Source: a virus (Duplodnaviria > Heunggongvirae > Uroviricota > Caudoviricetes). Taken from it: a DNA stretch of 42,721 nucleotides. Positions within the stretch are counted from its first letter, which is position 1; every line of letters begins with the position of its first letter. The stretch lies in IMG/VR virus record IMGVR_UViG_2703718828_000007, one strand, 5' to 3'. Shown piece after piece: positions 20,167-23,681 of the stretch. The notes under the pieces are model-generated. The model was not told where the DNA came from and searched no databases. It saw only the letters and a list, made by a program, of their open reading frames with translations. The position numbers and the translations under genes are program-made.

Positions 20167-20808
20167 ATGGCAACGCTTAAGGACCTTTCCAGTCAGTTAA
20201 GACAGCTGCAGAAGCAAATACCGTTTGCGACTGCCCAGGCTATGACTAAAGTGGTTCGCCAGATAGAAGCGGCCCAAAAAACAGCATTTGAGCGGAATCT
20301 GGATAATCCAACACCTTTTACAGTTAAATCGGTAGGGTCAGTTGGTGCCAGGAAAAACAGCCTTCGTGCGAAGGTGTTTGTTCGTGATACTGCTGCTGGC
20401 TACCTTGAACCCTTCGAGTTCGGCGGAGAGCACAAGCTTAATGGTAGTGCTTTGCTTAATCCGAAAGACATAAAGCTTAATAAATACGGCAACCTGCCGC
20501 GTAATAAGCTCTCTCAGCTCAAAGCAAAGCCAAACGTATTTATTGGTGACGTTGGTGGCGTGAATGCCGTGTGGCAGAGAAAAAAGCCGAAAATCAAAAA
20601 AGGGAAGAAACGGGCAAAACGTTCTCCGAACGGCACGCGCAGAGACAAGATTAAGCAACCTGCACCAAAATTGCTCATTCGGTTTGGAGACGCGCTTCCA
20701 GTCAAACCAACGCTCGGCTATATGGACAGGGCAAACACCATGGTCAACGCATTGTTACCCTCAGCGCTGCACCAGGCGATTGCTGAGGCGATCAGCTCGG
20801 CCAGATAG
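20167..20808 (+). CDS. Hypothetical basic protein (213 aa) upstream of cos region
   Basis: AGGAGG RBS 8 nt upstream; Lys/Arg-rich centre (KKPKIKKGKKRAKR). Confidence 0.5.
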   Translation: MATLKDLSSQLRQLQKQIPFATAQAMTKVVRQIEAAQKTAFERNLDNPTPFTVKSVGSVGARKNSLRAKVFVRDTAAGYLEPFEFGGEHKLNGSALLNPKDIKLNKYGNLPRNKLSQLKAKPNVFIGDVGGVNAVWQRKKPKIKKGKKRAKRSPNGTRRDKIKQPAPKLLIRFGDALPVKPTLGYMDRANTMVNALLPSALHQAIAEAISSAR

Positions 20809-20899
20809 CCCCCCAGGGGTTTTGGGTCCTTCCTGAGCCTTTTGTAAGGCACGGGCATTGCGCGCCGCGGTGTTTTCCTAGCTACAACTTTCAGATTTG

Positions 20900-21047
20900 T
20901 GTCCCATGTCCCACCTCTGGCGATCATTACGGACACCTCGCCAGCTCTGGCTATTCCAGTTTATTCCAGTGGGACATTCTGGTGGGACATGGCAAAAATG
21001 TCCCAGGCGAATGTCCCACCCCAGAAAATGTCCCAGGTGATGTCCCA
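20900..21047. repeat. Array of eight TGTCCCA heptamers (6 direct, 2 inverted); candidate cosB-like terminase-binding region
   Basis: Copies at about 20900, 20907, 20970(inv), 20983(inv), 20999, 21012, 21029, 21041; abuts small terminase start. Confidence 0.45.
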
Positions 21048-21616
21048 TGACCACGATGAACCAGAGTCAGTACGCACAACATTCAGGTGTGGATCGCAAA
21101 ACAATTGGCCGGTGGATTAAAGCCGGGCGCTTCATTGTGATGGACGGAGACCTGATTGACGTAGAGGCCAGCGATGCGGCATTGAAGAAAAACCGCGATG
21201 GCAAAGACCCGCGCGCCTCGAACGCGAAGAAAAAGAAAACTCCCGTCGTTAGCGATAACGATGATGACGGTGATGAAATCAATAAAACTGTCCGCCAGAT
21301 AATGCTCACTGAAGGGGCAGATCTTTCGAGAGAGGAAGCGGGACGTATCCGCGAGAATTACATGGCCCTGCAGGCAAAGCTGCAGTATGAAAAAGACAGC
21401 GGCCAGCTTATTGAGCTGACAGCAGCCGAGGAGGTTTTATTCAACGCCTTTCGCCAACAGCGTGATGCCTGGCTTAACTGGCCGTCCAGGGTGGCGCCGC
21501 TAATGGCTGCTGATCTGGATGTACCGGCGGACAGGATGACAGAGGTGCTGATTGAACATGTCCACAAACACATCTCAGTCCTCGGAGAGCCAGAGTTTAA
21601 CCCGGCAGAAGATTGA
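21047..21616 (+). CDS. Terminase small subunit (Nu1-like)
   Basis: N-terminal HTH similar to lambda Nu1 (from memory); start may be ATG at 21056; overlaps large subunit. Confidence 0.7.
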   Translation: MTTMNQSQYAQHSGVDRKTIGRWIKAGRFIVMDGDLIDVEASDAALKKNRDGKDPRASNAKKKKTPVVSDNDDDGDEINKTVRQIMLTEGADLSREEAGRIRENYMALQAKLQYEKDSGQLIELTAAEEVLFNAFRQQRDAWLNWPSRVAPLMAADLDVPADRMTEVLIEHVHKHISVLGEPEFNPAED

Positions 21617-23681
21617 GCGTCTTGAATTAAGCGTCCGCAAAGGCTGGACACCCCCGCCGCGTATCAGTGTGCCGCAGTGGGCAGATGACTATCGTAAGCT
21701 GGCAAAAGAGGCTGGGAGCACTTCGGGAAACTGGGAAACATCGACGGTAGAAATTGCCCGCGGACCGATGCTTGCCGCGACGGAGTCCGGGGTTCATATC
21801 ATCACTGTAATGTGCTGTACCCAGTTGATGAAGACAGCACTGCTGGAAAACCTTTTTGGCTATTTTGCCCACCTCGATCCTTGTCCGATACTGCTGCTGC
21901 AGCCGAAAGAAGAAGCCGCTGAACAGTTTTCGAAAGAGCGTATTAGCCCGCTGGTAAGGGTGACGCCGGTACTGCGTAAAATCATCGGTGATTCGAAACA
22001 GAAAAGCTCGAAAGAAACCATTCTTTACAAGGCATTCACTGGCGGATTTCTGGCGCTGGCGGGTGCTGGTAGCCCTGATAACCTTGCGCGTCGTCCGATT
22101 CGTGTCCTGCTGGCGGATGAAGTGGACAAGTACCCGATAACCCGCGAAGGCGATCCAATTGCGCTGGCCGAAGAGCGTACAGCGACATTTGGCCTGACCT
22201 GGCTGTCTGTACGCGCCTGTTCGCCGACGGTGGAGGATGAGAGCCGCATTGCTGACAGCTACGCCGACTCCGATCAGCGCCGGGCATCTGTGGTTTGCCC
22301 GCACTGTGGCCACCGCCAGTTCCCCGACTTTTTCAAACACGTTCAGTGGCCGAAAGAGGGAGATAAACACCTGACTAAATCGGCGATGCTCTATTGCGAA
22401 TGCTGTGGTAGTGGCTGGTCCGAAGGACAGCGCCTCAGAGCTCTGCACACTATTCGATGGCATCAGACGCGCCCATTTGAGTGCTGCGGGGAGCGGCACT
22501 CACCGCTGATGGATTATGACCTTGCCTGGCGGGCGGCAGACGAGGGCAGCGTTGAAAAGGTCTGGCAATGGTCAGAGTCGGAACGGCATGCGGTCTATCG
22601 CGCAATCTGCCCCTCCTGTGGAAAGGAGGCAGTCGATAACCACCACGCGGGGTACCAGGCATCCAAGCTTTTCAGCCCCTGGCAAAAAGATAAGCCGTCG
22701 GATATTGCGAAAAAATATATCGATGCGAAGGGCGATCCGGATAAGGAACAGGCGTGGTGGAATACCCAGATGGGGCTTCCGCACCGACCTAATCATGGGA
22801 AACAGCTCCCTGTTGATGTTCTGCTGGCGCGCCGGGAAATATTTCCGGCCGTCGTTCCGGACGGGGTGGCATTGTTAACAGCTGGAGTTGATACCCAGGA
22901 CGATCGCTTCGAAATTACGATCACCGGCTGGGGGAGAGATGAAGAATCGTGGTCGGTCGCGCATGACGTTATTTATGGTGACCTTGAGACGGAAGAACCC
23001 TGGAAGCGACTGGATGCATACCTGAAACAGATCTGGCGACGTGGTGACGGGCGCGGCCTGAATATCATGGCAACGTGCATGGACTCCGGCGGCCACCATA
23101 CGCAGAAGGTATACGAATTCGCCAAAGAGCGTCTTGGCCGTCGTGTCTGGGCAATTAAGGGGGAGTCTGCACAGGGAGGCAAACGCAATCCTGTCTGGCC
23201 GACCAAACGACCATCATCGAAAAGCAAAGCCAGTTTCCGCCCTGTCATTCTGGGGGTTAACTCAGCGAAAGACGTGATACGCGGTCGCCTGCATCTTGAG
23301 CCACCCAAACCTGGCGCCGCCGCTGCGGGTTATATGCATTTTCCTGACGATCGCGATCTCGGGTACTTCAATCAGCTGCTGGCGGAGCGACTGGTTTACA
23401 AAGTCATTTCCGGGCAGCGGTACAGTATCTGGGAAGCAATACCAGGACGAGCTAACGAAGCGCTTGACTGCCTCGTTTACAGCTATGCCGCGCTGTGCGG
23501 TCTCAAACATATGGGGTTAAAACTCAACGTCCGGGCCGCCAACCTCGAAGCCGATCCGGATAAGTTCCTGCCAGCGCCAGTTGGACAGGAAGAAAAAATC
23601 AATTACGAGCTGCCGGGTGCGGTTATTGAAGAACCAGCGCCGGTCAAACGTAAGCGAATATCGCAACTCCTGCCGAAATAA
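21552..23681 (+). CDS. Terminase large subunit (lambda gpA-like)
   Basis: 709 aa; C-terminal NEALDCLVYSYAAL motif as in lambda gpA; follows Nu1-like gene. Confidence 0.85.
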   Translation: MNMSTNTSQSSESQSLTRQKIERLELSVRKGWTPPPRISVPQWADDYRKLAKEAGSTSGNWETSTVEIARGPMLAATESGVHIITVMCCTQLMKTALLENLFGYFAHLDPCPILLLQPKEEAAEQFSKERISPLVRVTPVLRKIIGDSKQKSSKETILYKAFTGGFLALAGAGSPDNLARRPIRVLLADEVDKYPITREGDPIALAEERTATFGLTWLSVRACSPTVEDESRIADSYADSDQRRASVVCPHCGHRQFPDFFKHVQWPKEGDKHLTKSAMLYCECCGSGWSEGQRLRALHTIRWHQTRPFECCGERHSPLMDYDLAWRAADEGSVEKVWQWSESERHAVYRAICPSCGKEAVDNHHAGYQASKLFSPWQKDKPSDIAKKYIDAKGDPDKEQAWWNTQMGLPHRPNHGKQLPVDVLLARREIFPAVVPDGVALLTAGVDTQDDRFEITITGWGRDEESWSVAHDVIYGDLETEEPWKRLDAYLKQIWRRGDGRGLNIMATCMDSGGHHTQKVYEFAKERLGRRVWAIKGESAQGGKRNPVWPTKRPSSKSKASFRPVILGVNSAKDVIRGRLHLEPPKPGAAAAGYMHFPDDRDLGYFNQLLAERLVYKVISGQRYSIWEAIPGRANEALDCLVYSYAALCGLKHMGLKLNVRAANLEADPDKFLPAPVGQEEKINYELPGAVIEEPAPVKRKRISQLLPK

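Follow-up and report, generated by a model that had tools for sequence, protein, structure and literature searches.

In the 42,721-bp stretch of viral DNA analyzed here (IMG/VR record IMGVR_UViG_2703718828_000007; hereafter the window), an Escherichia coli prophage, positions 20824-21047 very probably form a lambda-type cos site with 5' cohesive ends, composed of the cosQ heptamer GGGTCCT, the cosN sequence GCATTGCGCGCC, and a cosB of eight copies of (A)TGTCCCA that reaches the start of terS, the gene for the small terminase subunit (TerS). An earlier note, made from the letters of this DNA alone, had described eight copies of TGTCCCA in about 150 bp, six direct and two inverted, overlapping the start of the small terminase gene, and had taken them for a cosB-like packaging recognition region with cosN at around 20850 to 20880; we confirm the array and its overlap with terS, and the packaging reading is supported, with cosN falling inside the predicted interval. 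The case rests on a cosN 12-mer and flanks shared with a phage whose virion ends have been mapped, a GGGTCCT word upstream and a lambda-type head and packaging module downstream, natural hybrids in which only the array and terS codons 1 to ~120 differ, heptamers that are more invariant than the spacers between them, further classes of phage that carry their own words at the same place in a layout that mirrors lambda R3-R2-R1, and a TerS N terminus that aligns to the winged helix-turn-helix (wHTH) of lambda Nu1, with the class differences lying in the predicted recognition helix.

The predicted cohesive end can be placed to the base by homology to Serratia phage vB_SspM_BZS1 (BZS1), which together with Citrobacter phage phiNP is the nearest sequenced phage (large terminase subunit, TerL, ~48% identical). 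BZS1 has 5' cohesive ends with the overhang GCATTGCGCGCC, determined by PhageTerm on virion reads and checked by sequencing of the phage ends against a PCR (polymerase chain reaction) product of the prophage (PMC7556043), and its record (MT843275) is linear, begins with GCATTGCGCGCC, and bears the label 'cosL' at 1-12. The same 12-mer occurs once in the window, and both of its flanks are conserved between the two phages: the joined ends of BZS1 read ...ATGGGTCCTTCCCTGCACTTTTGTAAAGCACGG/GCATTGCGCGCC/GCGTTC..CTAGCTATCAACTTTTGAAATTTG-GGTAACAGGTAACA..., and the window reads ...TTTGGGTCCTTCCTGAGCCTTTTGTAAGGCACGG/GCATTGCGCGCC/GCGGTGTTTTCCTAGCTACAACTTTCAGATTTG-TGTCCCATGTCCCA... across the site. Cutting would place the top-strand nick before 20855 and the bottom-strand nick after 20866. 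The flanks in the window (..GCACGG/../GCGGTGTTTT) also resemble those of lambda (..TTACG/../CGCGGGTTTT), whose joined ends read ...ACGGGTCCTTTCCGGTGATCCGACAGGTTACG/GGGCGGCGACCT/CGCGGGTTTTCGCTA..., and the predicted 12-nt 5' ends have the same length, whereas GCATTGCGCGCC matches lambda GGGCGGCGACCT at 5 of 12 positions, which places the window outside the 'Lambda-like phages' as defined by a 12-nt end resembling GGGCGGCGACCT (PMC4669245).

Beyond what the earlier note had pointed out, the window has a candidate cosQ about 30 nt 5' of cosN: GGGTCCT lies 31 nt before the first nucleotide of cosN in the window and in BZS1, and 29-31 nt before it in all 132 loci compiled. The distance in lambda is 30 nt (48473-48479), and there this word is presumably the cosQ of Wieczorek and Feiss (2001). 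In an alignment of lambda, the window, BZS1, phiNP, phiAP1, and the E. coli relative L007, the invariant positions are GGGTCCTT, the CGG that directly precedes the nick, and some of the positions to the right of cosN. cosQ is a highly conserved 7-bp element required for termination (PMC4669245), and GGGTCCT in the window would act in the termination of packaging at the downstream cos. The features of the site and of the adjoining terminase genes are collected in Table 1.

Table 1. Predicted elements of the cos region and the terminase genes, in window coordinates
Feature	Coordinates	Strand	Basis or remark
cosQ-like heptamer GGGTCCT, inside the conserved block GGGTCCTTCC (20824-20833)	20824-20830	+	Spacing and conservation
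cosN GCATTGCGCGCC, predicted 12-nt 5' cohesive end	20855-20866	+	Identical to the mapped BZS1 overhang
cosN-to-cosB spacer GCGGTGTTTTCCTAGCTACAACTTTCAGATTTG, with CTAGCTA and an A/T-rich stretch	20867-20899	+	Conserved in BZS1, phiNP, and phiAP1; partly in lambda
Predicted specificity cassette: heptamer array and ~120 terS codons	20895-21410	+	L007 identity profile and protein alignment
Proximal abutting tandem pair TGTCCCA-TGTCCCA	20900-20913	+	+46 to +59 from cosN nucleotide 1; position equivalent to lambda R3
Variable spacer, including the TATTCCAGT pair (20952-20970)	20914-20969		Poorly conserved in close relatives
Inverted heptamer pair, 13 bp apart	20970-20989	-	Orientation and order equivalent to lambda R2
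Four distal direct heptamers (20999, 21012, 21029, 21041)	20999-21047	+	Lambda R1-like position
terS, small terminase subunit, 189 aa	21047-21616	+	phrog_57 'terminase small subunit', E = 4.6e-36
terL, gpA-family large terminase	21552-23681	+	Pfam GpA_ATPase 2.8e-64, GpA_nuclease 2.2e-78

The repeats that we assign to cosB occupy most of the interval between cosN and terS. On the plus strand TGTCCCA starts at 20900, 20907, 20999, 21012, 21029, and 21041, and on the minus strand it occupies 20970-20976 and 20983-20989, which gives eight copies within 148 bp (20900-21047), the last base of the final copy being the A of the terS ATG (21047); a scan of the array for copies with one mismatch found none. 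The other ~42.5 kb of the window holds three copies, and shuffles expect 5.3 window-wide; by a hand calculation from the window copy counts and the shuffle expectation, ~0.018 copies are expected in 148 bp and the Poisson P(>=8) is ~3e-19. The true unit is (A)TGTCCCA, since seven of the eight window copies are ATGTCCCA, and in 405 copies from relatives the base in front of the heptamer (position -1) is A for 82% and G for 17%. Conservation follows the words: in 36 distinct close relatives with 81-100% identity, the heptamers have 49 invariant columns out of 56 and the spacers 35 out of 95 (Fisher p = 5e-10), and in more distant arrays with the same word the words alone survive and the spacers are unrelated. 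The other two elements that the earlier note had listed, a tandem TATTCCAGT pair (20952-20960 and 20962-20970) and a GC-rich tract, GCGCGCCGCG (20860-20869), are both present, and we read the pair, in a step beyond that note, as a probable degenerate third copy of the 13-bp inverted-repeat unit ATTC(C/T)(A/G)GTGGGAC.

The order of the copies, counted from the first nucleotide of cosN, is forward (+46, +53), reverse (+116, +129), and forward again (+145 to +187), the same order as that of the TerS sites between cosN and terS in lambda (R3-R2-R1). The length of the spacer after cosN is fixed, so that in 80 of 81 arrays the first heptamer starts between +46 and +49. The 7-bp spacing of the proximal pair recurs in nearly all arrays, the inverted copies are 12-14 bp apart in all arrays, and a spacing of 12-13 bp dominates among the distal copies, in each case irrespective of which of the two main words the array carries. 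Lambda R3 spans bp 50-65, and its distance to cosN is critical (PMC9026076); the proximal pair here spans +46 to +59, and the terS ATG lies 192 nt from cosN nucleotide 1, compared with 190 nt in lambda. The units themselves are different, in that lambda has three 16-bp R sequences and the window has eight words of 7-8 bp (an abutting pair, a 13-bp-spaced pair, and four direct copies), so that each R site is replaced by two to four heptamers.

The symmetry of this arrangement brings in a second explanation, namely, that the repeats act as an RNA hairpin in the terS 5' leader, or as a DNA cruciform, which regulates terS translation either alone or beside TerS binding. A 22-nt inverted repeat (20969-21019) is 86% complementary, the RNA fold has a z of -2.97 relative to shuffles, and the last heptamer is flanked by a Shine-Dalgarno-like sequence and the ATG. 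However, the pairing is confined to the heptamers, complementarity of the 6-nt arm spacers is not maintained in relatives, no partner exists for the proximal pair or for copies 7 and 8, and arrays with no inverted copy (L083) or with one (L036, L006) keep the remaining layout; a comparison with Rfam returned no family, the lone match being a chance miRNA-hairpin hit that scores 20.9 bits where the gathering score is 100. As the pairing involves nothing but the heptamers, we judge the hairpin to be secondary; it may be a by-product of the symmetric arrangement of sites, and we consider it very unlikely as the explanation of the array.

Several further observations concern the array. In the window, a Shine-Dalgarno-like AGGTGA (21035-21040) is followed by one heptamer and then by the terS ATG (21035-21049), and the same order is found in L007, in which the word is different (about 1839-1853). 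Four relatives with the same word as the window (L036, L040, L066, L083) have the palindrome TGCATAnnTATGCA at +62 to +80, directly after the proximal pair; it is absent from the window, where the spacer is GC-richer and contains a CCACCTCTGGCGAT / CCAGCTCTGGCTAT repeat 30 bp apart. A 30-bp super-repeat, hinted at by the repeat scan, was dropped because the array written in 30-bp rows did not fit, and replication iterons were dropped because the genes that border the site are a late gene on one side and the terminase genes on the other, with no replication gene adjacent.

The decisive evidence for a predicted role in packaging recognition is that the array covaries with TerS. Three E. coli relatives (L007, L008, L009) share the cosQ-cosN block with the window, but their array consists of GGTAACA in place of TGTCCCA. 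The layout is unchanged, with two abutting copies, an inverted pair 12 bp apart, and three direct copies of which the last touches the ATG. Their TerS N terminus reads MNQSDFARLHGVSRKTVTMWKSRG compared with MNQSQYAQHSGVDRKTIGRWIKAG in the window. L007 is 100% identical to the window over 20167-20866; the next 50-bp bin, which begins at 20867, is 76% identical, and the two sequences diverge from ~20895 on. Identity then falls to 26-62% over 20917-21416 (essentially unalignable to ~21410), and returns to 88-94% over 21417-21616, and terL is 64-88% identical per 50-bp bin. Since L007 differs in the array and the 5' part of terS alone and the flanks are conserved, the two appear as one cassette exchanged between lineages.

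Among loci retrieved by scanning viral contigs for GGGTCCTTCC-N15-30-GCATTGCGC (at least 120 loci, with duplicate arrays removed before classes were counted), a TerS of the type YAxHxGV(D/N)RKT..RW.K.G (class T; ~40 distinct loci among those listed) accompanies 5-9 copies of TGTCCCA and zero of GGTAACA, and a TerS of the type FAxLHxVSRKT.T.WK.RGW (class G; ~30 distinct loci among those listed) accompanies 1-9 copies of GGTAACA and zero of TGTCCCA. The heptamer type tracks the helix-turn-helix type of TerS with zero exceptions across the distinct viral and E. coli loci examined. Other types of TerS come with their own word at the same +46 position, namely, GGTAACG, GGTTGCA (phiAP1), TGTTCGCA, TGTTTGCA, TGTCCGCA, CGTTACAC, and GTGTGAA, so that one cosQ-cosN scaffold is common to at least eight word and TerS classes. 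Repeats of cosB type lie between cosN and terS at a fixed first distance and in forward-reverse-forward order, with TerS binding suggested by covariation.

These comparisons also bear on the alternative that the earlier note had kept in reserve, that the array is the operator of a transcription regulator of the structural-gene operon, for example a late activator or a repressor. Operators typically have short direct and inverted repeats that cluster just upstream of a gene, and the last copy overlaps the translation start region of terS; however, no sigma-70-like promoter was found in 20300-21700, the 700 bp upstream are 100% identical in L007, with the TerS N terminus the only coding change linked to the repeats, the position of the array is fixed to cosN and not to the ATG, and short-cos relatives (described below) have their distal repeats within the terS gene, which would be odd for an operator. 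With no promoter-like site and TerS the sole protein that changes with the repeats, this alternative finds no support, and we regard it as highly improbable.

TerS itself, the predicted reader of the words, has database relatives that are all named 'hypothetical protein'. Its predicted wHTH comprises residues 1-50 (21047-21196), with a predicted recognition helix at residues 17-26 (21095-21124), and its C-terminal ~70 residues are probably the TerL-binding part. A family profile aligned by hhalign matches lambda Nu1 residues 3-55 over residues 1-49 (E = 1e-4, probability 58%), counted from the methionine of MNQS at 21056 and hence residues 4-52 of the open reading frame (ORF) that starts at 21047. 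The AlphaFold2 model has a strand, helices at 6-13 and 17-26, a strand at 36-38, and a helix at 39-49, with a predicted local distance difference test (pLDDT) score of 73-79 over the first 50 residues and of ~76-79 for the N-domain; its top PDB match in Foldseek is 1J9I, the DNA-binding domain of gpNu1 (probability 0.94, TM 0.58, 2.5 angstrom over 54 columns), followed by Xis and BldC-type MerR-like domains. Sequence searches of the PDB with TerS gave only RecA-fusion and ATPase matches, which were discarded as spurious. A Nu1-like wHTH at the TerS N terminus is therefore a prediction with moderate support. In lambda the recognition helix comprises residues 17-24 (PMC9026076), and residues 20 and 24 determine TerS specificity (PMC4669245). 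The aligned helix segment is KTIGRWIK in class T versus KTVTMWKS in class G, and the class-specific differences fall in the predicted recognition helix, as expected if it sets specificity.

Some results weigh against a lambda-type cos site, or limit what the comparisons can carry. The Pfam family Phage_Nu1 (PF07471) does not match TerS at E <= 5, although lambda Nu1 scores 333 bits in the same run, and Pfam as a whole assigns TerS to no family, with sub-threshold hits to HTH_28 and HTH_17 only. The hhalign probability is just 58%, the Foldseek match to 1J9I has E = 0.45, and the mean pLDDT of the model is 69.8. Lambda has a site for integration host factor (IHF), I1, in this region; in the window, from cosN to the ATG, the consensus WATCAANNNNTTR is not found with one mismatch or fewer, by a scan that recovers lambda I1 but is a weak test, as any consensus scan is. 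An IHF-consensus match at +31 has 0-1 mismatch in relatives and 2 mismatches in the window. With no IHF consensus where lambda has I1, a lambda-style hairpin geometry is not to be assumed. The viral-contig pattern fixed cosQ and nucleotides 1-9 of cosN, which biases what could appear among its matches, and the covariation counts are phylogenetically non-independent, the independent events being a few cassette swaps and classes.

The cos reading also draws on what lies downstream. A gpA-family terminase follows directly after terS, and its nuclease would nick cosN; the module continues with gpW and a lambda-family portal, as in lambda, which likewise has a gpA-family TerL; the wHTH predicted at the N terminus of TerS would be a further parallel. 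The tail is different, in that a relative 99.9% identical over a 1-kb query from the region (20700-21700) has contractile, Mu-like tail genes and lambda is siphoviral. This context counts against a third explanation, in which the region initiates pac-type headful packaging or belongs to a defective prophage remnant with a non-functional array. Some carriers, such as E. coli HS, do hold a truncated prophage with fragments of an integrase and an upstream gene. The window, however, has a gpA-family TerL, a cosQ, and a 12-mer that copies a mapped cohesive end exactly, purifying selection acts on the array and on cosN in many lineages and genera, and the near-identical relative has the site amid complete sets of genes for head, tail, lysis, and replication; we give this explanation very little credence.

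If the site is a cos, it would operate as follows. The N-terminal domains of TerS would bind the heptamers, with the proximal pair, in the place of lambda R3, held at a fixed +46 to +59 from the nick site, the inverted pair corresponding to R2, and the direct run to R1. The TerS oligomer on cosB would then position the gpA-family TerL, which would make staggered nicks 12 nt apart at 20855-20866, and packaging would run to the right through terS and terL until, aided by cosQ, it terminates at the next cos. Successive N-terminal domains of the oligomer may spiral along the DNA, as suggested by the 12- to 13-bp spacing of the heptamers, as opposed to one dimer clamping a hairpin. The heptamer word and the recognition helix of TerS would together set packaging specificity and would be swapped between phages as one cassette. 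TerS binding, the sites at which this prophage is nicked, and the complex with its stoichiometry and geometry are what we infer from these comparisons.

An experimental parallel for the exchange exists in lambda and phage 21, which share cosQ and cosN and in which cosB and the TerS recognition helix change together; laboratory lambda-21 and lambda-N15 hybrids (the lambda-21 work being that of the Feiss laboratory) that carry the cosB and the terS 5' segment of the other phage switch packaging specificity (PMC4669245). The window and L007 are a natural counterpart of these hybrids, with matching cassette boundaries, differing from them in that the case here is one of sequence covariation alone and that at least eight classes sit on one scaffold, compared with two or three.

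BZS1 and phiNP share with the window the identical cosN 12-mer, conserved cosQ and flanks, the 48% identity in TerL, and the gene upstream of the site, but their TerS is ~28-33% identical and of class G, and three GGTAACA copies precede its ATG. The BZS1 paper maps cosN and does not describe cosQ or cosB repeats (PMC7556043). We found no paper on these repeats, and that paper was the only relevant match for the cohesive-end sequence; the site is of the lambda kind, and its cosB architecture is an undescribed variant that belongs to a large modular family.

Part of this family has a shorter form of the site, to which the closest parallel is the 'simple' cosB of N15, in which R3 is joined by an accessory inverted site, rR2, within the TerS gene. 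In the short-cos relatives (BZS1, phiNP, and others) terS starts at +74/+75, compared with +89 in N15 (PMC4669245, PMC9026076), and repeats are likewise found inside terS ~200 bp downstream, with an inverted copy first. The intragenic clusters differ from N15 in that they comprise 3-6 copies that double as Gly-Asn codons, and the window differs in being a long form with all copies upstream of terS. Each distal cluster consists of an inverted copy and then 3-6 direct copies at 12-bp spacing (phiNP [L010], +249 to +310; BZS1 [L012]; L016; L023; L088; L130; and phiAP1 [L011]), and the words encode a low-complexity linker in TerS, GGTAAC giving Gly-Asn repeats and the phiAP1 word TGCAACC giving Gln-Pro or Ala-Thr. 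In these relatives the same DNA appears to be both binding site and coding sequence.

Variation in cosN and the edges of the shared block were also noted. Among the matches listed, cosN variants differ solely at nucleotides 10-12 (GCATTGCGCACC, ..GAG, ..GCG, and ..GCT; L002 1660-1671 and other loci), which are the positions at which the scan pattern allowed variation to be seen, and this variability echoes that reported for the right half of lambda-like cohesive ends. One locus (L041, 420-3124), as well as L122, has an identical cosQ and GCATTGCGCGCC but diverges immediately after nucleotide 12, and the genes that come next encode an HNH endonuclease, a small terminase of P27 type, and a large terminase resembling Terminase_1 (named from reading of the ORF translations); by this reading, an HK97-style packaging module is joined exactly at the cosN of the gpA-type family.

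Immediately upstream of the cos site is a 213-aa ORF (20167-20808; phrog_1924 'minor tail protein', no Pfam family), which packaging would reach last. BZS1 (p72) and phiNP ('phiBZS1_p72') have this gene at the corresponding position, where phiAP1 has an ORF of similar size; the BZS1 authors remark on its conserved position (PMC7556043). The 1-kb query matches 60 of 5,426 complete E. coli genomes (~1%), among them strains 2022CK-00450, ECONIH4, and AW1.7 at 99.7-99.9% identity over its length, and the prophage family was also found in many other Enterobacterales. Many of the genome matches begin exactly at query position 112 or 124 (20811-20823 of the window), and a mosaic junction therefore lies just before the cos site and just after the stop codon of the 213-aa gene. 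In E. coli HS (L004, 368-1488), a fragment of the integrase abuts a fragment of the 213-aa gene beside tRNA-Ser, and that truncated prophage keeps the complete cos and terS-terL. A megablast search of the region against the phage collection gave no matches, and distant blastn gave matches to phiNP and phiAP1 that were limited to the cosQ-cosN block.

It is possible, although we advance this tentatively and hold it to be somewhat doubtful in its full extent, that the site belongs to a large undescribed family of cos phages of Proteobacteria, in which an invariant cosQ-cosN scaffold homologous to that of lambda is combined with a rapidly swapping cassette of 7- to 8-bp words (3-9 copies, at least eight words) read by matching variants of the TerS helix-turn-helix, and in which the short form writes the distal words into terS as a Gly-Asn linker. 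If so, one stretch of DNA in the short form would serve TerS as its target and at the same time encode part of TerS, and the last word, which fills the gap from the Shine-Dalgarno-like sequence to the ATG, may couple the expression of terS to occupancy by its product. The predicted map gives exact positions of cosQ, cosN, and cosB for a prophage family whose TerS is annotated everywhere as 'hypothetical protein', and it would extend the lambda cosQ word and cos geometry to phages with unrelated cohesive ends and contractile tails. The specificity word would predict which helper packages which prophages, cosmids, and satellites, which is relevant to transduction and to the engineering of phage-based delivery. 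A cos element is mechanistically expected at this position, yet the natural TGTCCCA/GGTAACA hybrids, together with at least six further word classes, would offer a ready series for the study of DNA reading by TerS and a clean natural system for the evolution of packaging specificity.

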